From Candidatus Marinacidobacterium sp. (lineage in GTDB: Bacteria > Acidobacteriota > Vicinamibacteria > Marinacidobacterales > Marinacidobacteraceae), in the NCBI GenBank assembly GCA_965204755.1, contig OZ242011.1:3289656-3353655 (forward strand): a stretch of 64,000 nt of DNA, read 5' to 3'. Within the stretch, counting starts at the first letter, position 1. Each line of letters opens with the position of its first letter. Positions 4,352 through 41,501 of this stretch are shown here, piece after piece. The translations under genes were made by a program, and so were the position numbers. Under the pieces are notes generated by a model. The model did no database searches. It was not told the origin of the DNA and saw nothing but the letters and a program-made list of their open reading frames with translations.

Positions 4352-5086
4352 ATGGAGCCGCGCGGCGCAACGGGTCGGCCCGGAGCGGCGCCGGGCCGCC
4401 GCAGCCGCCGCCTGATCCTCGGGCTGGACGAAGCGGGGCGGGGGCCGGCGCTCGGCCCGCTGGTGGTGGCGGGCGTGGCGCTCGATGTGCCGGCGGCCGC
4501 CGCCCTCCGGCGGCGGGGCGTGAAGGACTCGAAGGACTTCGGCCCCGGCGAGGAGGGGCGCGAGCGGCGGCGCGAACTGGCGGCGGAAGTGCGGAAGCGG
4601 GCGGCCGGCGTCTTCGTGCGGGTTCTCTCCGCCGCCGAAGTGGACCGCTATGTCGAAGTGCGCGGCCTCAACGCGCTGGAGCGCCGCGCCGCCGACGAGA
4701 TCGTCACCGAAGCCGGCCCGGCGCGCCGCATCGTGGCCGACGGCGCGAGGCTCTTCGGCCCCCTGGCCGGGCGGTATCCGCACCTCGAGGCGCTCGACCG
4801 GGGCGAGTCGCAGCACGCGGCGGTGGCCGCCGCCAGCGTGGTCGCCAAGGATCGGCGCGACGAGTTGTTCGCCGAAATCGCCGAGCGGTACCGCGCCGAC
4901 TTCGGCGAAGTGCGCGGCGGCGGCTATGTGAACCGCGACACCGAGGCCTTCCTCCGCCGCTTCCACGCCGCCCGCGGCCGCCTCCCGGAGGAGACCCGCC
5001 TCAGTTGGCGCTGGTCGGTCATCCGCGAGTTGAACGGCCAACCCCGATTGTTCGGCGGCGCCGGCGCCCCGGGCGGTGGCGCCTGA
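4352..5086 (+). CDS. rnhB: ribonuclease HII
   Basis: ILGLDEAGRGPALGPLVVAGV active-site motif, DSK, AASVVAK. Start taken at internal ATG (MEPRG) of ORF 4241..5086. Confidence 0.8.
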   Translation: MEPRGATGRPGAAPGRRSRRLILGLDEAGRGPALGPLVVAGVALDVPAAAALRRRGVKDSKDFGPGEEGRERRRELAAEVRKRAAGVFVRVLSAAEVDRYVEVRGLNALERRAADEIVTEAGPARRIVADGARLFGPLAGRYPHLEALDRGESQHAAVAAASVVAKDRRDELFAEIAERYRADFGEVRGGGYVNRDTEAFLRRFHAARGRLPEETRLSWRWSVIRELNGQPRLFGGAGAPGGGA

Positions 5087-21411: not shown

Positions 21412-21578
21412 CCCGGCGAGTCGGGCGCCGGCAGCCGACCGCACGCCGGGGAGAAAGGACCTCGGGCGGCGGGTCTCGGCGGGTCGGAAAGTGGTCGGCA
21501 TCACGAAACCTCCGGCGGAAGGCGCGGGCGGGCGGCGCAGCGGCGTGGGAGGGGCCGCGAGGAAGCGGCGCGTCGGCG

Positions 21579-21652
21579 TACGCCTGGCAGGACTCGAACC
21601 TGCGACCTACGGATTAGGAATCCGTCGCTCTATCCGCCTGAGCTACAGGCGC
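21579..21652 (-). tRNA. tRNA-Arg (anticodon CCT)
   Basis: Reverse complement folds as a cloverleaf: acceptor GCGCCUG/CAGGCGU, D-arm GCUC/GAGC, anticodon stem ACGGA/UCCGU with loop UUCCUAA, T-arm GCAGG-UUCGAGU-CCUGC; 74 nt, no encoded CCA. Confidence 0.85.
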
Positions 21653-26813: not shown

Positions 26814-27839
26814 ATGCGCGTTTCCCTCCTGCGTGTTCCCGCCTTCCCGCTGTTCGGCGTCCTTGTCGGCGTTCTGGTCGGCGCCCTCGCCGTCCTCGCA
26901 GCGGCCGCCGCCGCCCCGAGCCAGCCGCCCGCCTCCGCCGCCCCGCCGCCGCCCGCCGCGGGCGACCTCGAGCAGGAGCAACGGAAGACCACCGTCGGCG
27001 ACCGGTTCAGTTTCGTGATCCGGGTGCCGAGCGTCACCCTCGATGTCGTCGTCTCCGACGAGCGCGGCCGGTTCGTGACCGGCCTCGGCCCCGCGGACTT
27101 CGTGGTGCTCGAAGACGGCCGACCCCAGGAGATCGAGTTCTTCACCGCCGAACTCACCCCCGTGAGCAGCCTGCTGCTGCTCGACACCTCCGCCTCGGTC
27201 CGCTCCAGCCTCTCCGCCATCCAGACCGCCGCCTACCTGTTCCTCCGCACGATGGCCGACCGGGACCGGGCGCGGGTGGCCACCTTCAGCGAAGGCGTCC
27301 GCTTCGGCCCGCCCTTCCAGACCCGGATCTGGGACCAGGTGGCGATGATCCGCGCCATGCGCCCGTTCGGGAAGACCGCCCTCTACGACGCCATCCTCAC
27401 CGGCCTGCAGGAACTCTCGATCGTCGAGGAGCGGAAGGCGATGGTGCTGCTCTCCGACGGCGAGGACTCCGGCCGGGCGGCGAAGGGCAGCGTCAGCACC
27501 CGGGAACAGGCGCTCGAAGGCGCGCGCCTCTCCGAGGGCGCCATCTACACCGTCGGCTACACCGGCTGGAGCCCGGACGGCGGCGGCCGGCTGAACCGGG
27601 ATTTCCTGGACGCGGTGGCGGAGCAGAGCGGCGGGCGCTCCTTCTACCCGGAGGAGGTGGAGGAACTGCCCCGATACTTCCGGGAGATCCAGCACGAACT
27701 CCACCGGCAGTACCAAATCGCCTACCTCCCCTCCCGCGACCGCAAGGAAGGCGGCTGGCGCACCATCGAAGTCCGGGTCCGCGACCGCCCGGAACTCACC
27801 GCCCGCACCCGCAAGGGCTACTACGCCGCGCCGGGGTAG
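26814..27839 (+). CDS. von Willebrand factor A (VWA) domain protein, secreted
   Basis: LLLDTSASV ... VLLSDGEDSG MIDAS-type motifs with a signal peptide. Confidence 0.75.
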   Translation: MRVSLLRVPAFPLFGVLVGVLVGALAVLAAAAAAPSQPPASAAPPPPAAGDLEQEQRKTTVGDRFSFVIRVPSVTLDVVVSDERGRFVTGLGPADFVVLEDGRPQEIEFFTAELTPVSSLLLLDTSASVRSSLSAIQTAAYLFLRTMADRDRARVATFSEGVRFGPPFQTRIWDQVAMIRAMRPFGKTALYDAILTGLQELSIVEERKAMVLLSDGEDSGRAAKGSVSTREQALEGARLSEGAIYTVGYTGWSPDGGGRLNRDFLDAVAEQSGGRSFYPEEVEELPRYFREIQHELHRQYQIAYLPSRDRKEGGWRTIEVRVRDRPELTARTRKGYYAAPG

Positions 27840-27939
27840 GGACGCCCGCGCGGCGCGGCGGATGGATGTCCGCGCCGCCGCCGCGCCCGGTCTCGACCGC
27901 CCTCTTGCGGCCGGGCGAGGCGCGGGCTAATCTTCCTAC

Positions 27940-28013
27940 CGCACTTCCCCCCCTCGGGATCGTGTCCGGATCGGCAACCGGTTGCCTTTCTGGATACCCC
28001 GGGGGCGATTGCC
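27940..28013 (+). repeat. copy 1 of a diverged ~150-nt tandem element (candidate sRNA); conserved core
   Basis: CGCACTT-C7-TCGGGATCGTGTCCGGATC-GGCAACCGGTTGCC-TTTCTGGATACCCCGGGGGCGATT, preceded by TTGCGG-N17-CTAATC. Confidence 0.5.
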
Positions 28014-28439
28014 TTGAGATGGCGGTTGCGCAATGCGGGTTCCGCGTCATCGGGGGGTGCTTCGCGGTCTCAGCCGGTCGAGGTTGAGCCTCGCTTCGGG
28101 TTTGGCGGCGGGACGAGGGGTTGCGCGTTCGACCCCGGCTCACCCCTTCGGGTCGAGCCTCCCAACCCGAGATGGCCGCTGCGGCGGCCGACCGGCCTCC
28201 GCCCGGTTCTCCGCGCTGGCCCGGCGGAGCCGCCCGAACACGCGGTGCGCGCCGGCGGCCGCCGGCGAGCCCCCGCGGGCTTGATGTCCGGGGAGGCTCT
28301 GGATAGCATCCTCGCTCGCACTAACCCCCCCGGGGATTTCGTCTTGGGCGGCATTCGTCGTTCGTGGCGCCCCCGGGGCATTCGCGTTAAACGGGGCGCC
28401 TGCGCGTCCCGCTTCCCTGAACCCCCGCTAGTATTCCGA

Positions 28440-28510
28440 CCGCACTTAAGCCTCCCGGGATCGTGTCCAGATCCGGCAACCGGTGGCCGCTCCGGGCGCC
28501 CCGGGAGTGA
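28440..28510 (+). repeat. copy 2 of the tandem element (more diverged)
   Basis: CGCACTTAAGCCTCCCGGGATCGTGTCCAGATCCGGCAACCGGTGGCC... preceded by TAGTAT. Confidence 0.45.
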
Positions 28511-28728
28511 TCCTTCTCGTCGGGAGGTGGCCGCCGAGCGATGAGGCTCGGCGAGTCGAGCGGGTTCTGAGCGGAGTCAGGCGTTCCGGCGTTCGGCGTC
28601 GCCTCGCTCCGGCCGTCTCCGACCGTCGCTGCTCCGAGCGGTCGTACCGGTGCCCCCGCCTGCGGGGCGCGTCCGGCCCTCGGGTTCTTCCCGGTGTCGG
28701 GGCGCCAACTGGACTGGGCCCACCACCG

Positions 28729-28760
28729 TCTTGACATCGCGGAGGGTGCCGTCTACTATT
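28729..28760 (+). promoter_or_regulatory. sigma70-like promoter TTGACA-N17-TACTAT driving repeat copy 3
   Basis: Consensus -35 and near-consensus -10 with a 17-nt spacer, read directly from the sequence. Predicted TSS lands at the start of the conserved core. Confidence 0.45.
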
Positions 28761-28764
28761 CCGG

Positions 28765-28838
28765 TTGCACTTACCCCCCCCGGGATCGTGTCCTGATCGG
28801 CAACCGGTTGCCTTTCTGGATACCCCGGGGGCGATTCT
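28765..28838 (+). repeat. copy 3 of the tandem element, with a near-consensus promoter immediately upstream
   Basis: CACTTAC8GGGATCGTGTCCTGATCGGCAACCGGTTGCCTTTCTGGATACCCCGGGGGCGATT. The downstream ~80 nt are also conserved with copy 1. Confidence 0.5.
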
Positions 28839-29076
28839 CTTAACGGGGAGAGGGCGGCTGTCGGGCAAGCGGGTTCGGCGTCGTCGGGGGTGTTCTGAGC
28901 AGGCTCAGCCGGTCGGCGGCTGGGCGGCGCTGCGGATGTGGCGGTTGGGCGAGCACTTGCGAGTTCGTCCTTGGCTCGACCGGTCGGCCGGGCCGCGGAT
29001 GTGACCTCGCGGGCCGCGTCGCGCGTTCGTCTCCTCCGCTGTCTCTCATCCTGTCGCGGATTCGCGCGGAGGGCTC

Positions 29077-29829
29077 GTGTACGAGACGGACCGGCATGGG
29101 GCGCGAGATGCCGCCCCGGATGACGAAGTGGATGATCGGTCCACTCGCCGCAACCGGGTCGGCGGTGTCGCCAGCGAAGTGTCGAACGCGTCCCTTCCGC
29201 CGCTGCCGCTTCAGCGAGCGGCCGTGTTCATCGATGGAAGCAACTGGTACTACGGACTCAGAGGAATCGGGGTTCGCAGCGGCCATCTCCATTATTCGGA
29301 AGTGGCTCGCAAACTCGCCTGCGGCCGGAATGTGTGCGCTGTCCGATACTATGTCGGGAAAGTCACTACGCCTATCGCGACGGCCAAGGCGCAAGACGAC
29401 TTCTTGGCGGCGCTGCGCGAGCAGGGAGTGCGTGTCTCTTTGGGCCGGATGCAGCGCAATCCCATGAGCCGGCGGGCCGCGGATGACCGGAGTCGGCTGG
29501 CTCGCGCCTTCGCGGATCGCGACCATGAGGTTCCGCCCGACCTGATGCGAACGATCGACGCGTTCTGTCGCTCGCGGCCGCCCGAATACCGGGAGAAGCA
29601 GGTGGATACACGGATCGCGGTGGATCTCGTGGACCTGGCGCACCGAGACCGGTACGATGTGGCTTATCTACTCTCCGCAGACGCCGACTTCCTTCCGGCA
29701 GTCCAGGTAGCGCGTCGTCTCGGTAAGGGAGTGTTCGCTGTCGCTCCATCCGGAGGGGACGAACTCAAGGAGGCAGCGACCGGTTTCATAAAGGTCTCGG
29801 CAGACTGGTTCGAGGGCCTGTACGCCTGA
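29077..29829 (+). CDS. NYN-domain (LabA-like/DUF88) PIN-fold ribonuclease
   Basis: AAVFIDGSNWYY ... VDTRIAVDLVDLA ... LLSADADFLPAV motifs. Lower GC. Three possible GTG starts (29077, 29128, 29179). Confidence 0.7.
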   Translation: MYETDRHGARDAAPDDEVDDRSTRRNRVGGVASEVSNASLPPLPLQRAAVFIDGSNWYYGLRGIGVRSGHLHYSEVARKLACGRNVCAVRYYVGKVTTPIATAKAQDDFLAALREQGVRVSLGRMQRNPMSRRAADDRSRLARAFADRDHEVPPDLMRTIDAFCRSRPPEYREKQVDTRIAVDLVDLAHRDRYDVAYLLSADADFLPAVQVARRLGKGVFAVAPSGGDELKEAATGFIKVSADWFEGLYA

Positions 29830-30081
29830 GTAGATCGCGGTTCTCGATGACTCATCGAGACGGCGCCGAGGTCGCGGTCGTCGGCAGGCGACGGATCGCA
29901 GACATAGGCCCGCGCTTAGCTCCGGGTGGCTCCCGTTCTCGCTGCGGCCGCGGAGGCGGGTGGATGCGTACGGGTCTCGGTATCGGAGGCGGATGAGCGC
30001 GTCCGGGCGGGGTGGTCGGATCTGTAGGCGGCAGGGCATACGATCTACCGGCGGCGGCGCATGCGGGGGGAGTTCGGGGTG

Positions 30082-31032
30082 ATGGATGCCCGGCGGGTGG
30101 TTCGGCGGTTGGTTCTCACCGGGGCGGCCGAGGAGGTCGTGGACCCGGGAGGCGGGTTCGCGGTGGCGGGGCGGGCCGGGGACACCGAGATCGCGGTGGC
30201 CGGGGGGCTGCCGCGGACGGCGGCGGCGCGGGCGCGGGGGCTCCGGGCCGCGTGGAGGCGGCGGGTGGGGAACACGCCGCGGACGCTCGTCCTGCTCGCG
30301 GATGATCTCGGTGGGGCTGCGTCCGTCCCGCGGGTGCTCGTCGCCGGGCCGGCGGAGGCCGACGCGGGGCCGTACTCGGTTCCGGCGGAAGCGCTGCTCG
30401 CCGCGGTGGAGGAGTACGCCGAGCGGCCCGACGGGGTGGGGCGGATCCATGCGCTCTCGCGGCAGTTGGAGCGGCTCGCCGGCATCTGCGGCGCGCGGGC
30501 GCGGGCGCCCGAATCCGAAGACTCGTTGGAGCGGCTGCGCGGGACGGAGTGGTGGGAGGGCGCGAGGGAGCGGACGGCCGCGATCCGGCCGGGCGACGGC
30601 TGGCGGGAGATCCTCGGCGCGCTCGGTTACCGGATCGAGCGGCGTCCGGTCGGGTACGCGCTGCGGAGCGGCGGCGGCGCGGTGGCCGCGGTCGTGATTC
30701 CCCGCCGCGACTCGGCCGAGTTCGACGCTTGGGACGACGGCCGTCCTCCCGAAGCGCGGCTCGCGGAACTGGCTCGCGCCGAGGGGGCGGGTCGCGGGAT
30801 GTTCGCCGCCGACGACCGGCTGCGCCGGTTCCGGTTCGACGCGCCGGGCAGCGACGGCGATTGCGGGTGGATCGAACTCGACGCGACCGCGCTCGGCGAG
30901 GAGAATCGACCGTTCCTCGCCCTGCTCGCCGCGGACCCGCTCGAGGTCGCGACCGCTGACGGGCGTTCGGTCGAGCCCGGCGCGCTCGGCCTCGCGACGC
31001 GGGAAGTCGCGGCGTCGCCGGTTTCGGCGTGA
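30082..31032 (+). CDS. standalone paralog of the N-terminal domain of the downstream methyltransferase (function unknown)
   Basis: 316 aa, roughly 45% identical over its full length to residues 1-300 of the 31066..34989 product. Shared blocks: MDA.RVV, RVGN.P..L.LLAD, GPYSVPA, DWWEGA, RPPE.RLA.L, RLR.FRFDA, DWIELDA..L.EE.RPFLAL. Confidence 0.7.
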   Translation: MDARRVVRRLVLTGAAEEVVDPGGGFAVAGRAGDTEIAVAGGLPRTAAARARGLRAAWRRRVGNTPRTLVLLADDLGGAASVPRVLVAGPAEADAGPYSVPAEALLAAVEEYAERPDGVGRIHALSRQLERLAGICGARARAPESEDSLERLRGTEWWEGARERTAAIRPGDGWREILGALGYRIERRPVGYALRSGGGAVAAVVIPRRDSAEFDAWDDGRPPEARLAELARAEGAGRGMFAADDRLRRFRFDAPGSDGDCGWIELDATALGEENRPFLALLAADPLEVATADGRSVEPGALGLATREVAASPVSA

Positions 31033-31065: not shown

Positions 31066-34000
31066 ATGGATGCTGAGCGGGTCGTCAGTACGCTGATCGG
31101 GGACGGGATCGCCGAGGAGGCGAAGCCGCAGGGGGAGTTCGTGCTGTCCGCGCGGATCGGCCGGACGGAGGTCAGCGTTGCCGGATCGCTCTCCGCGGCG
31201 TCGGCGGGCGCGAAGTTGCGGAGCCGGTGGAAGCAGCGGGTCGGGAACAGGCCGCTGAAACTGCTCCTGCTCGCGGATGTGTCGGGCGGCGACGACCGCG
31301 TCGTGGTCGTCGGCCCGTCGAAGGCCGACCAGGGGCCGTATTCCGTCCCGGCCACGGGGCTCTTGGAGAAACTCCGGGCGTTCGCCGATCGACCGGACAA
31401 GGGGGCGCGGCTGCGCTGGCTCACCCGCGAGTTGCAGCGGCTGGGTCTTTCCGGCATTCCCGGAGTTCTGGTGCGGGGTCTGCTGACCGAGCACACGCTG
31501 GAACGCTGGCGGGAGCGCGACTGGTGGGAGGGCGCGAAGCGGACGACCGCCGCCGTCGGGTCGGGAGACACTTGGCGGGACCTCTTCGGCAAACTCGGCT
31601 ACGAGTTGGAACAACAGCCGGAGGGCTACTTTCTGCGGGCCGGGGCGGCGCCGGTCGCGGCGGCGATCGCGTTCAGCGAGTCGGACCAGTTCGACCGCTT
31701 CGACGAAAACAACCGCCCGCCCGAGGGACGGCTCGCCGACCTGTGCGCGTCCGCGAACCTGCGCTACGGGATACTCGCGGCCCGCGGGAGGTTGCGCCTC
31801 TTCCGGTTCGATGCGCTGGACGGGAGCGGCGCCTCCGACTGGATCGAACTCGACGCCGCCGAACTCCGGGAAGAGGATCGGCCGTTCCTCGCCCTCTTCG
31901 CCTCCGAGTCGCTGGTTCCTGACGGTCGCTTCGATGCGGTGCTGAGCGACTCGCGCCGATACGGGGTGGAACTCTGGAAGCGGCTGGACAACCGCATCCG
32001 GGACCGCGCGCTCCCGGTGCTTGCCGAGGAGATGGAGGTCTGGGCGAAGGCAACCGGACTCGATCTGTCGGACCCGGCAGTCCGCAAGGACCTGGAACAG
32101 GCCTCCCTGACGCTGGCGTTCCGGCTGTTGTTCGTTCTCTACGCCGAGAGCGCCGGGTATCTGCCGATGAGCAACGCCGAGTACGAGGGTGCCAGTCTCA
32201 CGAGACTCGTACGGGAAGCGAGGCGGACGAGGGATCGGCTCGACGACAAGTCCACGGCGCTGTGGCTCCGGTTCGTGGTGCTGGTGCAGGCCATGCGCGG
32301 CGGCAACTCTGCCTGGAAGGTGCCGGCCTACAACGGAGCCCTGTTCTCCTCGGACGCTTTCCTCGGGGCGGAGACCCTGGAGCGCCTGTCGCTTCGGGAT
32401 CCCGGGTTCGGCAGCGTCCTGACACTGCTCGGTTGGGACGAGAAGCACGATTGCGGCGTGGACTACTCCACCATCGAGATCGGCCATTTGGGACACATCT
32501 ACGAGTCCCTGCTCACTCGGCAACTGACGCTGGCGCAGCGGGACCTGGTGTACGACGCGAAGAAGGACCGGTACCGCCCGCCGAAATTCAGCGAAGCCAG
32601 GGAGCCCGTCGTTTCCGCCGGGTCGCTGCTCTGGCAAACCCATCTCGGCGGAAGGAAGGCCGGGGGCGTGTACTACACCCCGTCCCCGCTGGTGCGGCAC
32701 CTCGTTGAGCGGGCGGTCGCGCCGGCGTTCGAGCGGCACCTCGACCAAGTGCGGAAGACGGCGGAGACCGACCCGGAGAGCGCCGCCGACCAGTTGCTCG
32801 ATTTCGCCGTGCTCGACCCGGCGTGCGGGAGCGCCCACTTCCTCGTGGAAGTCTTGGATCGTCTCGCCGACTTGACGGCTCGCTTCCTCGGAAACCAGCC
32901 GCTCCCGGCGATCGCGGCGCGCATGGAGACTCTGCGCGCCGCCGCCGGAAGCGACAGCGGAATCCGGGACATGACGCTACTGCGCCGTCTTCTGCTGAAG
33001 CACTGCATCTACGGCGTGGATGTGAGTCCGATGGGCGTCGAGATCGCCACCCTGTCGCTTTGGTTGGCCGCGTTCGTGCCCGGTCTCTCGCTGTCCTACC
33101 TCGGGCGGAATGTCATTCGCGGAAACTCGCTGCTCGGAGTCGCCGATCGGGAAACCGTGGTGAAGCCGCACGCGTTCGAGAGCGATGAACTCCGGGAAAG
33201 TCTGAAGAATGCAGCGGAGGCGGCCGCCGAGTTGGCTGACAATCCGGACCGGACTCCCGAGGAGTATGACCAGAGTTCGGCGGCGGACCATGCCGCCCAA
33301 ACGTTCGCGGCGGGTGCGAAGCGACTCTTCGATCTGTGGACTGCCGAGGCGGAGGTTTCGGACTGCCGGAGGTATCTTGGGGGTCGGGGCAAAGCGATTC
33401 TCGACGACGATCTCGACGATCGTGGTCGGGAGCTTGTACCAGCGGCCGCCGACTACGCCCGGCGATGGGATGTCCTTCACTGGCCGGTCGCCTTCCCCCA
33501 TGTCTTCGCGCGGGAGCGGCCGGGATTCGACGCTGTTGTCGGCAATCCTCCGTGGGAAGAGGTCACTGTCGAGGAACTCGACATCTATGTGATGGTGAGT
33601 CCCGGACTGAACACGCTTCCGGAGGATCAGCGGCTCCTGGCGGTCGCCGAACTCGACGAACAGGATCCGGCGCTGCGGTCGCGCGTTCTTCGGGAGAAGG
33701 GCCGGGCGAGGACTCAGAGGCGGGGACTCGGTGTCGGAGAATACGAAGGCTCCCCCGGCGATCCAGACCTCTACAAGTACTTCTGCCAGCGCTACCGGAA
33801 ACTGCTGCGGGCCGACGGGGCGTTCGGTGTCGTCCTGCCGAGGACGGCTTTCAGCGCCAAGGGGTCGGCGAAGTTCCGCGAGTGGCTCTACGGTCAGATC
33901 ACGGTAGATCGGGTCGATTTCTTGGTGAACACGAAGCAGTGGGCCTTCGACAGCACGCCGAAGTACACGATCGCCCTGTTGGCGGCACGGAACCGGAGGT

Positions 34001-34989
34001 CGCCACCGAGTCACCGGGCGGAGTTCGCGGGCACGGCTGATTCGCCCGAGGCCTGGAGGAGGCAAGTGTCGCAAGATGGCGTCGGTCTTGCGGCAGGGTG
34101 CTTCGGCCCCGAATGGGAGACGCCCCTCGTTCGTTCGCAGGACGAAGCGGATCTGCTTGAACGAGTTCGTCGCGGTTCGCGATTCCCGCTGGGGTCGGGA
34201 AGTCGGTGGTGGTGCTTTCCCGTGGCCGAACTTCATGAAACGAACGACAGACCCCTTTGGCTGGCGCAGACCTCCGGTCTTCCGCTCTGGAAGGGTGCGA
34301 GTTTCGGACCGTACGAGCCAAGAGGGACGGACGGCCGTCATTTCCCGCAGGAGGAGGAGTTGCTCCGCCGCAAACTCCACAAGCGCTCGCCGGGCAGCGG
34401 CTCACTGCTTGGACGAAAGTCCAAAACAGCACGCCAAGCCGCGGTGCGGAAGGAGGTGAGACGCGCCCGCGTCGCCTTTCACGATGTAGCCCGTGCGACG
34501 GACCCGCGCACCGTAGTCGCCTGCCTGATCCCCCCTACAGTTCTCCTGACCAACACGGCGCCCTATCTCGCGTTCCTTCACGGTGCGGAGAGGGAGCAGG
34601 CAGCCTGCCTGGGTGTCCTGAACAGTCTTCCGTTCGATTGGCAGGCCCGGCGGTTCGTCGAACTCCATGTGAACTTTTTCATCCTTGAGGGATTGATCGT
34701 TCCGGACATGGAGGAGAGCGACTTCGAGGTCGTTGCCGGGGCGTCGGCGCGGCTTTCCGCCGTGGACGACCGTTTCGCGGACTTTGCGAAGGCTACCGGG
34801 GTCAAGTGCGGTCCCGTCGAGGAGGATGAACGGAGCGAATTGCGAGCGGAGATCGATGCCCGCGTCGCCCGCGCCTGGAAACTCGACGAGAACGACCTCG
34901 ACCTGATGTTCGCCGATTTCAGCGAGTCGGCGGTGTCGGCGGACTACCGGGAAGCCGTGCGAATCCGTCTGCGGGCGTTGAACGCCTGA
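31066..34989 (+). CDS. PglX/Eco57I-like N6-adenine DNA methyltransferase (1307 aa) with extra N-terminal domain
   Basis: Helical region typical of PglX and type IIG enzymes (LLFVLYAESAGYLP...YNGALF...IGHLGHIYESLL). Motif I LDPACGSAHFL and motif IV VVGNPPW, followed by a long C-terminal target-recognition-like region. Confidence 0.8.
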   Translation: MDAERVVSTLIGDGIAEEAKPQGEFVLSARIGRTEVSVAGSLSAASAGAKLRSRWKQRVGNRPLKLLLLADVSGGDDRVVVVGPSKADQGPYSVPATGLLEKLRAFADRPDKGARLRWLTRELQRLGLSGIPGVLVRGLLTEHTLERWRERDWWEGAKRTTAAVGSGDTWRDLFGKLGYELEQQPEGYFLRAGAAPVAAAIAFSESDQFDRFDENNRPPEGRLADLCASANLRYGILAARGRLRLFRFDALDGSGASDWIELDAAELREEDRPFLALFASESLVPDGRFDAVLSDSRRYGVELWKRLDNRIRDRALPVLAEEMEVWAKATGLDLSDPAVRKDLEQASLTLAFRLLFVLYAESAGYLPMSNAEYEGASLTRLVREARRTRDRLDDKSTALWLRFVVLVQAMRGGNSAWKVPAYNGALFSSDAFLGAETLERLSLRDPGFGSVLTLLGWDEKHDCGVDYSTIEIGHLGHIYESLLTRQLTLAQRDLVYDAKKDRYRPPKFSEAREPVVSAGSLLWQTHLGGRKAGGVYYTPSPLVRHLVERAVAPAFERHLDQVRKTAETDPESAADQLLDFAVLDPACGSAHFLVEVLDRLADLTARFLGNQPLPAIAARMETLRAAAGSDSGIRDMTLLRRLLLKHCIYGVDVSPMGVEIATLSLWLAAFVPGLSLSYLGRNVIRGNSLLGVADRETVVKPHAFESDELRESLKNAAEAAAELADNPDRTPEEYDQSSAADHAAQTFAAGAKRLFDLWTAEAEVSDCRRYLGGRGKAILDDDLDDRGRELVPAAADYARRWDVLHWPVAFPHVFARERPGFDAVVGNPPWEEVTVEELDIYVMVSPGLNTLPEDQRLLAVAELDEQDPALRSRVLREKGRARTQRRGLGVGEYEGSPGDPDLYKYFCQRYRKLLRADGAFGVVLPRTAFSAKGSAKFREWLYGQITVDRVDFLVNTKQWAFDSTPKYTIALLAARNRRSPPSHRAEFAGTADSPEAWRRQVSQDGVGLAAGCFGPEWETPLVRSQDEADLLERVRRGSRFPLGSGSRWWCFPVAELHETNDRPLWLAQTSGLPLWKGASFGPYEPRGTDGRHFPQEEELLRRKLHKRSPGSGSLLGRKSKTARQAAVRKEVRRARVAFHDVARATDPRTVVACLIPPTVLLTNTAPYLAFLHGAEREQAACLGVLNSLPFDWQARRFVELHVNFFILEGLIVPDMEESDFEVVAGASARLSAVDDRFADFAKATGVKCGPVEEDERSELRAEIDARVARAWKLDENDLDLMFADFSESAVSADYREAVRIRLRALNA

Positions 34990-35002: not shown

Positions 35003-38000
35003 GTGAGTCGGCGTCCGCTTCCGCCGCCCCCCGCGGCCGTGTCGGTGCGTCCGACCCTGCTCGACAACCTCGAATTCGGGACCCACCGAGTCGGACTCGG
35101 CGCTCTCGCCTCCGACGATCCGAAGGACGCTCCGGTGTCCGTCGCCACCGGGTATGTGAATCTCGGGGGGCTCGCGGCGCTCGCGCAGGTCACGGAGACG
35201 CCGGCACGGCCGGTGCGGCTCCTGATCGGGGTCGCGCCTCCGCCCGGCGGCGGAGGAGCGCGGGCTTTGGTCAGGAAGTTCTTCGACGAGGCGCTTCAGG
35301 AGGTCCGCCGCGACCGGAACTTCGGGCGCTTTCCGCCGAGCCGGGCGAGGAGGAGTATCGGCCCGGTGGCCGAGTGGCTGAAGCGGCCCGAGGTCGAAGT
35401 CCGGCGGTACCAGGGAGCGTTCCTCCACGGGAAGGCGTACTTGTTCGGCGACGCCGGCAACCCGCGGGCGGCGCTCGTGTCCTCGGCGAACCTGACCGCC
35501 GCCGGGATGGAGAAGAACCTGGAACTCGGCTTGGTCGAGTACGGCCCGGACACCGTGGCCAAGGCCATCCGCTGGTTCGACCGCCTGTGGAAGTCCGACC
35601 AGGCCCGGGACTTCAAGGAGACGCTGGAGAAGTTGCTGGGCGCGGACCCGCTCCTCGACGCGCTGGAAGATCCGCGGGCGATCTACCTCCGGATCCTGCT
35701 CGAGTACTTCGGGGACGAGTTGGAGAAGGATCCGCCGCGGCCGCAGGCGGTCACCCTGGCCGACTTCCAGTGGGACGGGTTCCGGCGGGCGCTCCGGATC
35801 CTGGACAAGTGCGGCGGCGTGATCTACGCGGACGGCGTCGGCACCGGCAAGACGGAGATCGGGCTGGCGCTGCTGGAGCGGTACGCGGTCGGGGAAGGCA
35901 AACACGCGCTGGTGGTGGCGCCGGCGCAACTGGTGAAGACCTGGCAGGACCGGATCGACGAGGGAAACCTGCCGGGCCGGGTCGTTTCCTTCCACCAGTT
36001 GGCCGACGACCGGCGACTGAACCCGGAGGGGCGCGGCCGACACCTCCCCGCCGACAAGGACACCTACCGGCTGATCGTCGTGGACGAAGCGCACGCCTTC
36101 CGCAATCCGGACACCGGTTGGCACCGGGCGCTCTCCCGGCTGCTCGGCGGGAAACCCAAGCACGCGGTCTTCCTCACGGCCACGCCGATCAACAACGGCC
36201 TGCCGGACCTCTTCCACCTGGTGATGGCCTTCGCCCGCCACGACGCGGCGTTCGCCGAGCACGGGATCCGCTCGCTGCGGGCGCTGTTCCGGTCGGCGGG
36301 GGCGTTCAGCCGGGACGGGGAGAACCTGGACGCGGACCGCCTGTTCCCGCTCGCCGACCTGGTGAGCGTCCGGCGCGACCGGGCGTTCATCGAGAAGCAC
36401 TACCCGGACGCCAAGTTCCCGGACGGGAGGCCGCTGCGCTTCCCGAAGCCTCGACTCGAGACGGCGCGCTACGCGATAGACGAGGTATGGCCCGGGCTGG
36501 TCGCCGAGATCACTGACGCCGTGAACGAACTGACCCTCGCCCGCTACCGCCCCGAGCACTACGCGGTCGGTGAGGCGAGGGAAGAGGACCGCAACGATAC
36601 GGGGATCACCGGCCTGCTGCGCTCGGCGATCCTCAAGCGGTTCGAGTCCTGCCACGAGTCCTGCCGCCTGACCGTGGAGCGCATGGAGAAGGCGCACGAG
36701 GCGTTCCTCGCGGCCTGGGATGCCGGGTTCGTTCCCGGCTCCGAGGCGCTGCGGGAAATCGTGGAGGCGGACCTCGACGAGACGGCGGCGGCCGCGTGGC
36801 TCGGCGACGAGATCGAAGACGGACGGAGCCGACCGGTCGCGGACTTCGACGCCCTGCTTCGGCAACAGGTGGCGGACGACCTGGAGCGCCTGCGGAGGTT
36901 CCACCGGCGCCTGGAAGAGACCCGGCAGGGCGACGATCCGAAACTCCGGCTGCTGGTCCGGCTGATCGAGGAGTCGCCGTCGGAAAAGGTCGTCGTCTTC
37001 TCCGCGTTCGCCGATACGGTGCGCTATCTCGACGAAAAACTCCCGGAGGTCGTGGACGGACGGCGCCGCGCAGTCGTGATCGGCGAGGAGACCGCGCCCG
37101 ACGAGCGGATGCGCCGCCTCGAGAGTTTCGCCCCGAAGAGCGTCGTCGGCGAGGATCACGAACTCCCGGACGAAGTGCAGGAAGTGGATCTCCTGCTCAG
37201 CAACGATGTCCTCTCGGAAGGGCAGAACCTGCAGCAGGCGGGAGCGGTCGTCAGTTACGACTTCCCGTGGAACCCGCAGCGGGTCGTCCAGCGCTACGGG
37301 CGGGTCATCCGGCTCAAGAGTCCGCACGACGAGGTGTATCTCACGACCATGCTGCCGGCGCCGGGAGACCTCGAACTCCTGCTGAAACTCGAGGCGGCCA
37401 TCCGGCGCAAACTGACCGCGGCGCGGCTCTACGGCATGGATGTGGAGGTGGTCGAAGGCGGGGCGCCGGAAGCGGAGTTGATGTCCTTCGCGGAGCGGCT
37501 CGCCGCCCACGACCCGACCCTGCTCCGCGAATCCGTCGGATCCGGCATCGGGGCGGCGTTCAGCGGGGAATCGCTGCGCGCGGACTTCCATCGCGCCCTC
37601 ATGGAAGGCGAACTGCGGAAACTGCGCAACCTGCCTTGGGGCGTGGGCGCCGCGTTCCGCCTGCCGGCGCCGGGCCGGTCCGGAGCGGCGACGGCAGCCC
37701 CCGGCGAATCGTGGGCCCGGACGCCGGGAGTCTTCTTCGCCTGCCGGACGAAGCGGGACGACCGCTATTGGCGTTTCGTACCGCTCGAGGGTTCGGGGAC
37801 CGGGCCGGAACCGGAGGCGCTCCACCTGCGGCGGATCGCGCCGCCGCGAGGAGTGTCCGGTCTGACCTCCCTGCCGGAGGAGGCGGACCTGGAACGGGCT
37901 TGGGAAACCGCCGCGGAGTCCATCGTGAAGGAGCACAACGAACTCGCCGAGGCGAGTTTGGAGGAGGCGTCGGTGGGGCCGCGGCAGGCGTGGGCGCTCG

Positions 38001-38284
38001 GCGTGCTCGACGACCCCGACCACGGCCTCTCCGACGAGGAAGCCGACCATGCTTCGGAGGCGCTCCGCGTGGGCCGCAGCCAGTCCATCCGCCGCGAGTT
38101 GGGCCGGATCGAGAAGGAACTCGAGGACAAGGCCATCTCCCTCTCCGAGGCCGCCGGCCGCATCGTGGCCCTCGTGAAGTCGGAGGGCCTCCGCCCGGTG
38201 GAGCCCCCCAAACCCCTCGAACCCATCGAAGGCGAACAAGACTTGGGCGTCGTCTGCTGGATGGCCCTCCTTCCTTCGGCGTAG
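35003..38284 (+). CDS. PLD-family nuclease fused to SNF2-family helicase (1093 aa)
   Basis: N-terminal HKD motif FLHGKAYLF...SSANLTAAGMEKNLELG. Helicase motifs DGVGTGKT, VVDEAHAFRN, LLSNDVLSEGQNLQ, VVQRYGRVIR. GTG start 14 nt after the methyltransferase stop. Confidence 0.8.
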   Translation: MSRRPLPPPPAAVSVRPTLLDNLEFGTHRVGLGALASDDPKDAPVSVATGYVNLGGLAALAQVTETPARPVRLLIGVAPPPGGGGARALVRKFFDEALQEVRRDRNFGRFPPSRARRSIGPVAEWLKRPEVEVRRYQGAFLHGKAYLFGDAGNPRAALVSSANLTAAGMEKNLELGLVEYGPDTVAKAIRWFDRLWKSDQARDFKETLEKLLGADPLLDALEDPRAIYLRILLEYFGDELEKDPPRPQAVTLADFQWDGFRRALRILDKCGGVIYADGVGTGKTEIGLALLERYAVGEGKHALVVAPAQLVKTWQDRIDEGNLPGRVVSFHQLADDRRLNPEGRGRHLPADKDTYRLIVVDEAHAFRNPDTGWHRALSRLLGGKPKHAVFLTATPINNGLPDLFHLVMAFARHDAAFAEHGIRSLRALFRSAGAFSRDGENLDADRLFPLADLVSVRRDRAFIEKHYPDAKFPDGRPLRFPKPRLETARYAIDEVWPGLVAEITDAVNELTLARYRPEHYAVGEAREEDRNDTGITGLLRSAILKRFESCHESCRLTVERMEKAHEAFLAAWDAGFVPGSEALREIVEADLDETAAAAWLGDEIEDGRSRPVADFDALLRQQVADDLERLRRFHRRLEETRQGDDPKLRLLVRLIEESPSEKVVVFSAFADTVRYLDEKLPEVVDGRRRAVVIGEETAPDERMRRLESFAPKSVVGEDHELPDEVQEVDLLLSNDVLSEGQNLQQAGAVVSYDFPWNPQRVVQRYGRVIRLKSPHDEVYLTTMLPAPGDLELLLKLEAAIRRKLTAARLYGMDVEVVEGGAPEAELMSFAERLAAHDPTLLRESVGSGIGAAFSGESLRADFHRALMEGELRKLRNLPWGVGAAFRLPAPGRSGAATAAPGESWARTPGVFFACRTKRDDRYWRFVPLEGSGTGPEPEALHLRRIAPPRGVSGLTSLPEEADLERAWETAAESIVKEHNELAEASLEEASVGPRQAWALGVLDDPDHGLSDEEADHASEALRVGRSQSIRRELGRIEKELEDKAISLSEAAGRIVALVKSEGLRPVEPPKPLEPIEGEQDLGVVCWMALLPSA

Positions 38285-38407: not shown

Positions 38408-38830
38408 ATGCGCCCGGAAATCGGTTCGGGGCCGTTCCGACCCGGAACCGGCCGCCCCCCGCCGTATCTCGCCGGGCGGGAGGAAGAGCAGGACCTCTTC
38501 CTGATGCTGCTCGCCGACTTGAAGCCGTTTTCGACCGGCAGCGGGACGACTACTACGCCGACCGCCACGACGAACTGGAAACTGCGGCTGCTGCGCCCGG
38601 CGCGAGAGGTCGCGGAGGCATTCGAGTCGCAACCACTCCTCTCCGGCGAGGCACTGGAGGCCGCCATCCGGCGAGGTTTCGGCGAGGACGCCGGCGACGA
38701 CCAAGTGGACGCGACGGCGCAGCAGTTCCGCCATCTCGGCTACATCTGGCGGGCCGGAACCCGTCGGCCGTGGGAACCGGGCATTCCCAGCCTGATGGAC
38801 TACATCCTCCGGGAAGTCCCCGCGCCGTAA
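38408..38830 (+). pseudogene. internally deleted, frameshifted duplicate of the downstream AAA ATPase gene
   Basis: The first ~40 codons match the ATPase N-terminus (MRPEIGSGPFRPGTGRPPPYLAGREEEQDLF vs VRSEIGGGPFQPGSGVLPPHLAGREREQDLF). The last ~80 codons match its C-terminus almost exactly (LRLLRPAREVAEAFESQ...PGIPSLMDYILREVP). The intervening ~850 nt are missing. A linker runs in a shifted frame and a 2-nt deletion restores it. Confidence 0.55.
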
Positions 38831-38943
38831 GCCGGCGAGCCGCCTCCGGAATCTCTGCGGTGCGGGAAGCGCTCCACGACCCCCGAGAACCACGAGGGAT
38901 TCGCCGCCGCTCGGCGCCGGGACTTCCGGCTAAACTGGTTCTC

Positions 38944-40065
38944 GTGCGCTCTGAAATCGGTGGGGGGCCGTTCCAGCCCGGTTCCGGCGTACTCCCGCCG
39001 CACCTCGCCGGGCGGGAGCGGGAGCAGGACCTCTTCCGGACGCTGCTCGCCCGACTCGACCGCGGCGAGGCGCCGCCCGGAGAAGTCATCCTCTACGGGC
39101 CGCGCGGCAACGGCAAGACGGCGCTCCTCGCGTGGGTCAGCGAGTTTGCGAGCGAGTCCACCGGCGTGGATGTCGAGGAACGCACGCCGTCGGAGTTCGA
39201 TTCCCCGGCCGGACTGGCCGAGTTGTTGTTGCCGAAGTCCTGGTGGAAGACCGTCGGCCCCGAGGAGGTCGGCGTTCGGGGGATCACTTGGCGCCCGGGC
39301 CGGCGATCGGCAGCCCCGACCCCCGCCGAAGTCCTCGCTCTTCGGGCCGGGAGGAAACCGTTGGTCGTGCTTCTCGACGAAGCGCACACTCTCGACCCCG
39401 AAGTCGGCCGCGCTCTCTTGAACGCGGCGCAGAAGGTCCGGCGCTCGGCGCCGTTTCTCCTGGTGTTGGCGGGAACTCCGAACCTTCGCGACCACTTGGC
39501 GTCCATGGGCGCCTCTTTCTGGAACCGCGGCCGGAAGTTGCGGATCGGACGCCTGGACGAGAGCGCCGCGGCGGAGGCGATACGGGAGCCGCTGGCGGCC
39601 GAAGACATCACCATCGCGGACGATGCGTTGGAGCACTTGGTTCGCGACAGCCACGGGTATCCGTTCTTCGTCCAACTCTGGGGCGAAGCGGTGTGGGCTC
39701 GCGCCGTCGAGACCTCACGGCAACAGGTCGTCTCCGAGGATGTGCGCGCCTGCCAAACCGTTTTCGACGAGCAGCGGGACGACTACTACGCCGACCGTCA
39801 CGACGAATTGGAAGAACTGCGGCTGCTGCGCCCGGCGCGGGCGGTCGCGGAGACCTTCGAGTCGCGTCCCGCCCTCTCCGGCGGCGAACTGGAGGCCGCC
39901 ATCCGGCGAGGTTTCGGCGAGGACGCCGGCGATGACGAAGTGAACGCGGCGGCGCAGCAGTTCCGCCATCTCGGCTACATCTGGCGGGCCGGAACCCGTC
40001 GGCTGTGGGAACCGGGCATTCCCAGCCTGATGGACTACATCCTCCGGGAGGTCCCCCCGCCATAG
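38944..40065 (+). CDS. AAA+ ATPase (AAA_16/ORC-Cdc6-like P-loop NTPase)
   Basis: ILYGPRGNGKTALL Walker A, VVLLDEAHTL Walker B. GTG start preceded by a duplicated upstream region. Confidence 0.7.
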   Translation: MRSEIGGGPFQPGSGVLPPHLAGREREQDLFRTLLARLDRGEAPPGEVILYGPRGNGKTALLAWVSEFASESTGVDVEERTPSEFDSPAGLAELLLPKSWWKTVGPEEVGVRGITWRPGRRSAAPTPAEVLALRAGRKPLVVLLDEAHTLDPEVGRALLNAAQKVRRSAPFLLVLAGTPNLRDHLASMGASFWNRGRKLRIGRLDESAAAEAIREPLAAEDITIADDALEHLVRDSHGYPFFVQLWGEAVWARAVETSRQQVVSEDVRACQTVFDEQRDDYYADRHDELEELRLLRPARAVAETFESRPALSGGELEAAIRRGFGEDAGDDEVNAAAQQFRHLGYIWRAGTRRLWEPGIPSLMDYILREVPPP

Positions 40066-40085
40066 AATTCCGGCGGGAGGCGGCG

Positions 40086-41501
40086 ATGTTGACGGGGATG
40101 CGCCTGCGGGGCTTCAAGTCGTGGAGGGATACGGGCGACATCGAGTTACGGCCGATCACCGCGTTCTTCGGCCTGAACGGTTCCGGGAAGACGAGTCTCC
40201 TGCAGGCGCTGCTGCTGCTGAAACAGACGGCGGAATCGCCGGGCCGCGGGCAGGTCTTCCACTTCGGGGACGGTCGGTCGGCGGTGGACCTCGGCGACTT
40301 CACCGATGCGGTGCATCGGCGCGATGCCGATGCCGCGCTGGGCGTTTCCCTCGATTGGACCGCGGACTCCGAGGTACGCGTTCGCGACGGCGACTTGCGC
40401 GAAGTCGCCGTCTCGGATTCCCTCGGGTTCTCGGTGGTCGCGGCGCGGGAAGGCGAGAGATCGCCGGAGACGACCGTGCGCGAGATTACTCATCGCGTCG
40501 GGAACTCCTGCTTCGGGATGCGGCGCGGGAAACGGGGTTACCGGTTGTTCGCCGATGCCGGGGAGTTTCGCTTCCGCAGGCGGCGGCGCCATGCGGAGAC
40601 TCTTCCCCCGCCGGTGTCCTGCTACAGGTTTCCGGCCGCTTCTCGCCAGGTGTTCGAGAACGCCGACTGCCTCTCCGCTCTCGAGCGTCCCCTGGAGCGG
40701 CAGTTGGACCGCCTCTACTACCTGGGGCTCTCGAGGGCGCGTCCGGAGCGACGGTATGTTTGGGTCGGCGCCCGCCCGCCGGATGCGGGGCGGTCGGGGG
40801 AGTTGGCCGTGGCGGTCCTCCTGGCGGCGCGCGCGGACGCAGACGGGATCGCGACGGAGCAGGGCGGGGACGGGCGCAGCCCGGAGGAGCAGGTGGAGCA
40901 CTGGCTGCGGGAAATGGGCCTCGTCCATACCTTCCGCGTCGCGCCGCTGGTCCCGGGACTGTTCGAAGTGCTCGTTCGCCAGACGCCGCACTCGGCGGAA
41001 GTCCCGATCACCGGTGCGGGTTTCGGGGTCGCGCAGGCGCTTCCGGTGTTGGCGCTCTGCTTCCACGCCCCCGAGGGTTCCACCATCCTCCTCGAACAGC
41101 CGGAAACCCGACTGCATCCGTCGGCCCAGTCCGCGCTCGCCGACGCGCTCCTCGACGCGCGGCGGCGCCGGGGGATCCAGTTCCTGATCGAGAGCCACAG
41201 CGAGCACTTGCTGCGGCGGCTCCAGCGGCGCGTCTCCGATGAGACTCTCTCCCACGAGGAAGTCGGGCTGTGGTATTGCGAGAACGAAGAAGGGGAGTCG
41301 TGCCTCACCGACTTGTCGCTGGATCGTTTCGGCGCCACCGGGTATTGGCCGGAGGGGCTCTTCGGAGACCAGTTCCGCGAAGTGGTCGAGATCGCCGAGA
41401 ATCGCCTGCGCCGGAGCATGGCCGAGGAAGAGAAGGAACCGGGCGCGCCCGCCTCGCCCTCGCGCCCGGAAGCGGGCGGGAGCGTGCCGGAAGCCGATTG
41501 A
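40086..41501 (+). CDS. ABC-type ATPase (AAA_21) with C-terminal DUF3696-like domain
   Basis: FFGLNGSGKTSLLQALLLL Walker A; LLEQPETRLHP D-loop; ESHSEHLL H-loop; C-terminal LWYCENEEGESCLTDLSLDRFGATGYWPEGLFGDQF. Confidence 0.7.
   Translation: MLTGMRLRGFKSWRDTGDIELRPITAFFGLNGSGKTSLLQALLLLKQTAESPGRGQVFHFGDGRSAVDLGDFTDAVHRRDADAALGVSLDWTADSEVRVRDGDLREVAVSDSLGFSVVAAREGERSPETTVREITHRVGNSCFGMRRGKRGYRLFADAGEFRFRRRRRHAETLPPPVSCYRFPAASRQVFENADCLSALERPLERQLDRLYYLGLSRARPERRYVWVGARPPDAGRSGELAVAVLLAARADADGIATEQGGDGRSPEEQVEHWLREMGLVHTFRVAPLVPGLFEVLVRQTPHSAEVPITGAGFGVAQALPVLALCFHAPEGSTILLEQPETRLHPSAQSALADALLDARRRRGIQFLIESHSEHLLRRLQRRVSDETLSHEEVGLWYCENEEGESCLTDLSLDRFGATGYWPEGLFGDQFREVVEIAENRLRRSMAEEEKEPGAPASPSRPEAGGSVPEAD

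Follow-up and report, generated by a model that had tools for sequence, protein, structure and literature searches.

A tandem array of structured RNA units beside a predicted NYN-domain ribonuclease gene in Candidatus Marinacidobacterium, and its relatives in other phyla

What does the apparently empty border of a defence island hold? The question is raised by a window of 64,000 nucleotides (nt) of Candidatus Marinacidobacterium sp. (OZ242011.1, positions 3,289,656-3,353,655, forward strand; "the window" denotes this whole stretch), in which a gap at 27,840-29,076 is bounded by a VWA gene on the left and by the gene of a NYN-domain protein, a predicted ribonuclease (RNase), on the right. An earlier note, made from the letters of the window, had claimed that the gap is non-coding and carries a tandem array of promoter-bearing structured elements, a candidate novel family of small RNAs (sRNAs). 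It was found that the gap holds a real, non-chance RNA element, which matches no Rfam family and is not described in the literature searched. The element is most likely an RNA partner or controller of the NYN nuclease, as judged from its sequence and its distribution.

Four related units and their RNA

None of the open reading frames (ORFs) in the gap has the signature of GC content at third codon positions (GC3) that is typical of this genome, and the nine longest gave zero Pfam matches at E<=0.1, which bears out the non-coding status claimed earlier. Small conserved ORFs inside the repeated units were rejected, since orthologues differ by indels whose lengths are not multiples of three, and since the gap ORFs gave no match in Pfam. 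A repeat search revealed a 47-nt core in three in-register copies at 27926, 28427 and 28752 (79-81% identity); a fourth copy, at 28313-28353, has diverged further. The search also returned a 120-nt pair at 80% identity and a 38-nt block that recurs without a single difference (100% identity) at 27972-28009 and 28798-28835. A 22-base degenerate pattern derived from the four copies matched the window four times, always on the + strand (27941, 28318, 28442 and 28767), and gave 0 matches across 100 shuffles; the three copies and the degenerate fourth trace of the earlier note were thus confirmed. Its picture of uniform elements of about 150 nt had to be given up, as the spacing between units is 377, 124 and 325 nt, and the similarity between them extends for about 200-260 nt downstream and not for about 80 nt. 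The units, called A to D, are 66-81% identical to each other.

Unit A (27941-28200, + strand) is the orphan copy adjoining the VWA gene; its RNA starts with GCACUU and its hairpin, P1, lies at 27951-28005. Over 27941-28141 it is 78.8% identical to positions 28767-28977 of unit D (BLAST). Unit B (28318-28428, + strand; P1 at 28325-28378) is a short, diverged subtype (GCACUAAC7GGGGAUUUCGUC...) with orthologues in the related loci L007, L012 and L016 (L numbers denote loci fetched from other genomes and contigs), and its nearest relatives are units of L018, L020 and L022. Unit C occupies 28442-28700 (+ strand; P1 at 28451-28507), and unit D, with P1 at 28777-28831 followed by two further hairpins, P2 and P3, reaches from 28767 to 29076 on the same strand, where the NYN gene begins. 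It can be inferred that the four are paralogous, same-strand transcription units, all specifying the same structured RNA, which would belong with the downstream NYN gene.

Promoter-like sites were found ahead of the units, all on the + strand. The site of unit A, TTGCGG-N17-TAATCT (27905-27933), matches the consensus at 6/12 positions with 17-nt spacing, and the same arrangement is present in the orthologous units of L011, L014 and L016; that of unit B, TTGATG-N17-TAGCAT (28281-28309), matches at 8/12. Unit C has a -10-like box, TAGTAT (28429-28434), with no convincing -35 box, its best promoter match being 6/12 (GTCCCG-N17-TAGTAT), and in its L011 orthologue the -10 box is lost (GAGGAT). Unit D is preceded by TTGACA-N17-TACTAT (28731-28759; 10/12, with 0.0 expected in shuffles), whose TTGAC and TA..AT positions are invariant across 7 related loci. 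The -10 boxes end about 7 nt upstream of GCACU in every unit. The promoter boxes of the earlier note therefore stood, with a -10 box at all four units and the perfect site before unit D; a recognisable -35 box is present at three of the four, unit C lacking one.

Unit D runs uninterrupted into a ribosome-binding site, GGAGGG (29068-29073), which is conserved 3 nt ahead of the GTG start of NYN at 29077, and the stretch from promoter to start codon shows 82% mean identity in an alignment of the 7 related loci. Hence, unit D reads as the promoter and the 5' untranslated region (UTR), of about 310 nt, of the NYN gene, and the three upstream units as paralogues of this leader that lack an ORF. A scan between P1 of unit D and the NYN start gave no further promoter or canonical terminator; P1 is followed by CGAUUCUCUU and about 245 nt more of leader, and was flagged by a loose terminator scan only. 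RNAalifold also proposed that GUGUUCUGAGC pairs over a long range with the ribosome-binding site of NYN; this helix was not adopted, as it came from 7 sequences and contained many G-U pairs.

The RNA begins with a single-stranded 5' tail, GCACU(U/A)A (consensus GCACUNA), followed by 7-8 C residues. The outer stem, or clamp, of P1 is CCCCCGGG/CCCGGGGG; inside it follow a 3-nt bulge (AUC), the helices GUGUCC/GGAUAC and GA/UC, and the apical stem GGCAA-CCGG-UUGCC. The folding energies of P1 range from -34 to -39 kcal/mol, and z reaches -3.8 on the + strand, being weaker on the - strand (unit A: -39.1 kcal/mol, z -3.6). Downstream of P1, the consensus fold of unit D contains P2, P3 and a structured extension of about 200 nt that is found in this lineage. 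In an alignment of 16 units from the window's clade, 96% of the P1 cells are paired, compared with 31-60% in slid controls, which bears out the structured elements of the earlier note. The changes in P1 include single-side ones (U-A to U-G, G-U to G-C, C-G to U-G) and double ones (CG to UA, AU to GC); pair 13-67 in the clamp of unit C is a compensatory change from CG to UA (CCUCCCGGG/CCCGGGAG), and the apical stem GGCAAC/GUUGCC is replaced by GGUGG/CCGCC in L010 and by GGCGAC/GUCGCC in L012. Since the single-side changes, of which there are many, are neutral in an RNA read from the + strand and give A.C mismatches on the opposite strand, they support transcription of the P1 RNA from the + strand.

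The NYN gene itself (29077-29829, + strand) encodes a LabA/MARF1-like predicted RNase (Pfam PF01936, 1.9e-22), and acidic residues are kept in 17 homologues. Pfam, NCBIfam and PADLOC gave NYN and HEC-09 matches only. The match to the PADLOC profile HEC-09 (PDLC04163, 4.7e-23) covers profile positions 94-176 of 203 and residues 164-242 of the protein, its C-terminal half, and the protein is best called HEC-09-like, the match being partial.

Relatives in the clade and in other phyla

Homologues of the NYN protein at 98% to 58% identity were traced to related metagenome contigs, and all the related NYN orthologues fetched have 2-5 units upstream on the same strand. The units are also present where the upstream genes differ (L007, L018, L020); the element thus travels with NYN and not with the VWA gene. 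An exact 22-base pattern proved too specific to the window's clade for a wider scan, with 0 matches in genome contigs and two chance matches within coding regions of metagenome contigs (L001, L002). On comparing strains (L010, L011, L014, L016), third-codon-position identity was 92-94% for the VWA gene and 50-80% for NYN (61-89% at the amino acid level), while unit A was core-like with 95-97% identity and the leader in unit D had 84-91%, above the synonymous sites of NYN. Hence, the boundary of the variable island runs through the array, and the NYN/Hma island is a locus that is hypervariable or frequently replaced.

The assemblies themselves are affected by the repeats. The contigs of L004 and L006 begin at window position 28807, inside P1, that of L009 begins at the GCACU of its proximal unit, and in L018 a run of N lies inside a unit (4357-4457). 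Since short-read contigs break at the repeat, copy numbers in metagenome-assembled genomes are probably underestimates. The length of the C-run varies between copies from 5 to about 21 (L022 4191-4203 and 4616-4637; L035 4392-4401; L054 1668-1678), with C13 and about C21 in a Ca. Marinacidobacterium chromosome, and this could be real slippage or phase-type variation, or long-read homopolymer error.

A scan of species-representative genomes with an NYN alignment gave 80 loci, comprising 51 full-length orthologues and 29 distant or partial matches. In 49 of the 51 full-length loci, which come from other phyla, a short form of the element (about 55 nt) lies directly before NYN, 46-110 nt ahead of the conserved NYN core, within the 150 nt before the core that were inspected. 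By their record labels, the taxa include Gammaproteobacteria, Binatia, Nitrospirales, Thermodesulfobacteriota, Myxococcota, Dehalococcoidia, Acidobacteriota, Gemmatimonas, Eisenbacteria and Fermentibacteria. The short form has a fixed order: a near-consensus promoter (TTGACA-N17-TAnnnT), CUAAC8GGGA, a bulge of 3-4 nt, a short and freely covarying hairpin that often has a GNRA loop, CCCCGGGGG and a tract of U5-9, with the start codon of NYN 8-25 nt past the U-tract. The hairpin and U-tract between promoter and ORF have the layout of a GC-rich hairpin/U-tract terminator. Promoters matching at 9/12 positions or better were found at 23 of the 49 units, against 2% of random positions, and a second variant with an extra upstream hairpin occurs in ten loci. 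Among the distant or partial matches, 26 of 29 lack any element, and a third variant, UAACCCC-AGGGAGCCG-GAAA-CGGCUCCCU-U9, is present in the remaining three (L086, L087, L089). These three, from Vicinamibacterales, show at about 4520-4645 a TTGACT promoter, a small hairpin, the UAACCCC motif, the 10-bp GAAA-loop hairpin, U9 and an ATG 9 nt on. The theme of UAACCCC and a terminator may thus reach beyond this NYN subfamily.

The link between the short form and the window was made with a covariance model, R1, built from 20 foreign short copies only, with no copy from the window. Over 907 kb it gave 77 matches, 77/77 on the NYN strand. Run with filters off on the 64-kb window, its four best matches were exactly the four units, namely unit B (28317-28385, E 1.2e-5), unit D (28766-28831, E 1.5e-3), unit C (28451-28515, E 0.016) and unit A (27951-28005, E 0.052), the next match having an E of 1.8. 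The alignment of the 77 matches is model-fitted and leans towards the structure; in it, 93% of cells are paired (29-66% in slid controls), 10 of 13 pairs show compensatory double changes, and 0/500 shuffles reach the observed covariation values. The units of the window are best described as an enlarged, GC-rich, multi-copy form of a widespread NYN-linked hairpin RNA. The U-tract decays stepwise from U8 in the short forms through CUUUUCUCUGU (L035) and UUUACUGCGUU (L018, L020) to CGAUUCUCUU in the window. The search for homologous repeats beside NYN in other genomes that the earlier note had proposed was thus answered by the 2-5 units in relatives and by the 49 loci elsewhere, which extend the family far beyond a local curiosity.

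No known RNA family was recognised in this element by Rfam 15. A scan of the window at 27000-30000 with E<=10 gave only a chance match to RsmW (16.8 bits, against a gathering score of 52), the whole window gave tRNA only at gathering thresholds, L020 gave nothing relevant, and six short-form loci gave nothing at the element. No NYN-associated RNA or antitoxin was found described in the literature. The candidate novel family of the earlier note hence stands as tandem, promoter-bearing, structured units that lack an Rfam match and are linked to NYN, with the amendments that the NYN-proximal copy is a leader and that the sRNA status is presumptive. In the course of this work a palindrome-like stretch of L036 (10054-10156) was noted, which matched two miRNA families on both strands below threshold (mir-H1, 48 bits against a gathering score of 97); almost certainly, this long inverted repeat has no connection with the NYN-linked RNA.

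Multi-copy arrays have been found in at least five lineages. In L048, five 118-nt units are nearly identical, and every one of them has its own TTGACA box and U8 tract. In L025, three old, diverged units each keep the promoter, the 5' motif, P1 with compensatory changes and the U-tract. L049 and L053, from two distant Acidobacteriota, share a module of unit, NYN and promoter plus unit that is 79% identical between them, and homology stops right after the second unit (L049 5777-5875, L053 5788-5886), which has a better promoter than the first; as it sits downstream of NYN, it cannot be a leader of NYN. The arrays of L048, L025 and L049/L053 argue that the RNA matters in its own right, beyond a leader role. 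In other phyla, the pair of RNA and NYN often stands alone among housekeeping genes (TonB-dependent receptor, ETF, Bax1-I), and in L048 it adjoins a PLD-SNF2 helicase and an AAA_21 ATPase. From its solitary occurrence in several genomes, the pair behaves as a self-contained, mobile, two-part module. A scan of viral contigs for TAAC8GGGA...CCCCGGGGG gave 0 matches and hence no sign of phage-borne mimics, and a tblastn search with NYN against plasmid and phage collections gave no match.

Function of the RNA: a proposed restraint on the nuclease and its alternatives

The reading that is tentatively preferred, at somewhat less than even confidence, is a module resembling toxin-antitoxin (TA) systems of type III, in which an excess of hairpin RNA would restrain or limit the NYN RNase. 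ToxIN-type loci are built with a strong promoter and, directly behind it, a strong terminator, both ahead of the gene for a nuclease. In the short forms, a consensus promoter is likewise followed by a strong terminator, so that the short, terminated hairpin RNA should be the main product and the NYN mRNA would arise by read-through. Made in excess over the nuclease, the RNA would limit NYN synthesis in cis, and in trans it probably binds to NYN, occupies it or is cleaved by it. The extra promoter-bearing copies would raise the ratio of RNA to protein, and if this unstable RNA were lost, as when host transcription is shut off by a phage, the RNase would be set free. The outer arms and the 5' tail are constant in sequence across phyla while the inner stem covaries freely, which points to sequence-specific recognition, most economically by NYN itself. 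In this scheme, the anatomy, strand, promoter positions, covariation and tight, exclusive linkage to NYN across phyla are observed; transcription, termination, contact between RNA and NYN, toxicity and a role in defence are inferred.

The likeness to type III TA systems (ToxIN, CptIN, TenpIN, and AvcID with its single sRNA) lies in an RNA gene on the same strand before a predicted endoribonuclease and sharing its promoter, in a Rho-independent terminator between RNA and ORF in most NYN lineages, by which the RNA should outnumber the mRNA, in RNAs that are often tandem direct repeats, and in small, mobile, two-part modules that are often located in defence islands. The differences are considerable. 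NYN is a LabA-type PIN-like protein and has neither the fold of ToxN, CptN or TenpN nor the deaminase character of AvcD; Pfam, NCBIfam and PADLOC placed it in none of these families. Known type III repeats are 34-45-nt units cut from one precursor, whereas the repeats here are whole transcription units with their own promoter (118-500 nt), the short forms also with their own terminator. Instead of a pseudoknot, the NYN-linked RNA forms a simple hairpin that is clamped and carries a C-rich tail. It may therefore be said that the module is closest in its working to type III TA systems and a member of no known type III family; if it is type III, it would be a new family.

Several observations weigh against this preferred reading. 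In the window's clade, P1 lacks a proper U-tract (CGAUUCUCUU, CGAUUGCCUU), which makes termination doubtful, and with 125-500 nt the clade's units resemble none of the known antitoxin repeats of type III. Unit C lacks a -35 box, and some orphan copies are in decay, among them unit B, which is disrupted in L011. The 95-97% identity of unit A between strains is no better than the 92-94% at neutral sites of the neighbouring core gene, and selection on this orphan is not demonstrable, as the strains are too close. At L067 (4560-5010), UUUUUCC-AUG and, in degenerate form, the first ~35 nt of the NYN ORF stand behind each of two orphan units, and P1 is broken in the second; the array arose by tandem duplication of a segment reaching from upstream of the promoter into the gene. 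Since the L067 orphans retain remnants of the NYN start, arrays can arise as plain duplication scars, and not every extra copy need be functional. Finally, HEC-09 cloned with its native upstream region gave no phage protection (bioRxiv 10.1101/2024.01.29.577857).

Several of these points support a purely cis-acting leader, an explanation that is rather unlikely but is the strongest of the alternatives. It holds that the hairpin is an attenuator or terminator and a 5' stabiliser that keeps a dangerous RNase at a low level, that the conserved 5' arm is the site for an antiterminator or for NYN itself (autoregulation), and that the upstream copies are by-products, non-functional or additive, of tandem duplication and of the replacement of alleles at the island's border. 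In every case the proximal copy is the 5' UTR of NYN, with the start codon close behind the U-tract in the short forms, and the L067 orphans testify to segmental duplication. The composition of the orphans varies even though the strains share 92-94% of the third codon positions of their core gene, the boundary between core and variable DNA passes through the array, some orphans are broken, and the units of the window lack a clean U-tract. In the second variant, the G-rich arm of the extra upstream hairpin could compete for the C-run, which is a classic attenuator layout. Known leader attenuators (RAT/LicT-BglG, PyrR, the pyrG leader) share with the element a promoter-proximal hairpin and U-tract right before the start codon and a conserved 5' arm sequence; however, the first variant has no evident antiterminator fold, there is no cognate regulator gene, and neither orphan copies without an ORF nor a copy downstream of the gene would be expected. 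Against this rival speak the orphans of L025, which are old and diverged and each still have a consensus promoter and a U-tract as well as the 5' motif and a compensated hairpin, and the downstream copy of L049/L053, which has the best promoter of its module and is conserved at the module edge. Arrays recur in at least five lineages, and for low expression a weak promoter would be simpler than a consensus promoter with a terminator.

That the units are base-pairing sibling sRNAs is improbable. Here, the C-rich 5' tail would pair with the G-rich ribosome-binding sites of other mRNAs, in the manner of LhrC1-5, RoxS/RsaE or CcsR1-4, and the linkage to NYN would be incidental or a matter of co-regulation. 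The tandem sibling arrays of Listeria (LhrC1-4) and Rhodobacter (CcsR1-4/cuckoo RNAs) consist of diverged head-to-tail copies with C-rich motifs, and the LhrC copies each have their own promoter; these RNAs base-pair with a multitude of mRNAs and are not known to be linked to the gene of a nuclease. The units studied here are likewise tandem multi-copy genes with their own promoters, the C-rich 5' segment of about 11 nt ahead of the hairpin is conserved and unpaired, and a terminator hairpin suits sRNAs of the Hfq/ProQ type. By comparison with what is generally known of such arrays, the last copy here is unusual in being fused to an ORF as its leader and the linkage to NYN in being near-absolute; the latter is also strand-specific across phyla and includes horizontally moved modules among unrelated neighbours. 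Moreover, most of the C-run lies within the stem, and no conserved target was identified. An inspection by eye showed no consistent pairing of the 5' tail with the start regions of NYN genes.

Very improbable is an element that acts as DNA, be it a recombination or cassette-boundary site, attC-like in folding as a single strand, or an operator for a DNA-binding regulator; such a site would account for the direct repeats around NYN and at the island border, and both versions were retained solely as low-probability rivals. Two copies flank NYN in L049 and L053, as attC copies can flank a gene, the island breakpoint lies inside the array, and CCCGGG palindromes occur in both arms. In its general layout, too, the element resembles integron attC, being an imperfect inverted repeat whose centre varies, whose outer arms are conserved and which contains bulged bases. 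Unlike attC, however, the element has a sigma-70 promoter at a fixed distance upstream and a U-tract downstream, precedes the gene rather than follows it, and shows the features of an RNA read from one strand, with wobble pairs tolerated on the + strand only. Its orientation is always that of NYN (77/77 matches), and a spacing between the arms of 12 to 60 nt is incompatible with a rigid operator. No integrase, IntI included, was seen among the proteins scanned beside NYN in the window and eight other loci, and most loci have no cassette array.

A generic dispersed repeat, such as a repetitive extragenic palindrome (REP) or a miniature inverted-repeat transposable element (MITE), or a chance similarity in GC-rich non-coding DNA, is refuted for practical purposes: the sequence is GC-rich (72%) and hairpin-forming and assemblers break contigs inside it, but the window has only four copies, all in this gap and on one strand, none occur elsewhere in 907 kb of flanks, the pattern expectation is 0, and covariation and conservation across phyla are evident. 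A CRISPR array was likewise rejected, as the units are 66-81% identical, are spaced 124-377 nt apart and each have a promoter, and no CRISPR repeat family matched in the window in the Rfam scans.

Genomic setting and significance

The VWA gene to the left of the array (26814-27839) matches TIGR03436 (acidobact_VWFA), and an exact-sequence look-up of its protein gave no identical record. The sole Rfam/ARAGORN match in the window is a tRNA-Arg (CCU) at 21578-21652 on the - strand, 6 kb left of the island border. To the right of NYN, PADLOC identified a type IIG/DrmMI-like methylase (31066-34989), an HKD+Snf2 helicase that is DrmD/HmaA-like (35003-38284) and an AAA_21/DUF3696 protein (40005-41501) that matches HEC-03B (1e-112) and also NsnB; an AAA_16/AAA_22 ATPase (38770-40065) has no PADLOC match. 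The region right of the gap is an Hma-like island carrying embedded genes. The interval between NYN and the methylase contains a 323-amino-acid ORF (30061-31032) that has no match in Pfam, NCBIfam or PADLOC. Its counterparts across the window's clade are 300-341 amino acids long; it is absent from L018 and L020, and the counterpart in L004 (1273-2298) diverges from the window at 30943 and has a different C-terminus.

HEC-09 was described as an Hma-embedded candidate defence gene (Payne et al., bioRxiv 10.1101/2024.01.29.577857), and the window resembles it in the profile match and in the neighbours, which comprise a type IIG-like methylase (REase_MTase_IIG/DrmMI-like), an HKD-SNF2 helicase and ATPases, HEC-03B among them. 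The likeness is partial in that only the C-terminal half of the window's NYN aligns. In that paper, HEC-09 is a protein-only, single-gene candidate that gave no defence in its only test, and no RNA is mentioned, with 0 occurrences of "ncRNA" or "non-coding" (bioRxiv 10.1101/2024.01.29.577857). A further reading, held at somewhat less than even probability, is that the locus represents a previously unrecognised and phylogenetically broad RNA-protein TA or defence module, in which a NYN (LabA/MARF1-like) RNase is checked by a C-tailed hairpin RNA of about 55 nt, which the shared promoter and a built-in terminator would supply in excess; its gene would have been amplified repeatedly into promoter-bearing arrays and, in this acidobacterial lineage, enlarged to units of 125-500 nt. 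If true, the type III-like systems would gain a fourth-plus family whose toxin fold and repeat logic are both new, and the seeming inertness of HEC-09 as a protein-only candidate would be explained.

NYN/LabA-type PIN-like nucleases, one of the largest families of nucleases in bacteria, are still without an assigned function (PMC5499597). A related NYN protein that is associated with CRISPR acts as a non-specific single-stranded RNase. A covarying RNA that accompanies a NYN subfamily in 49 of 51 loci gives these nucleases a concrete partner, be it an RNA antitoxin, an autoregulatory substrate or an attenuator. It also adds a new RNA motif with a ready covariance model, and a second, independent route to arrays of RNA repeats beside an RNase, besides the ToxI-type repeats. 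The seemingly empty border of the defence island would, in this light, be functional sequence and a site at which island alleles are exchanged.

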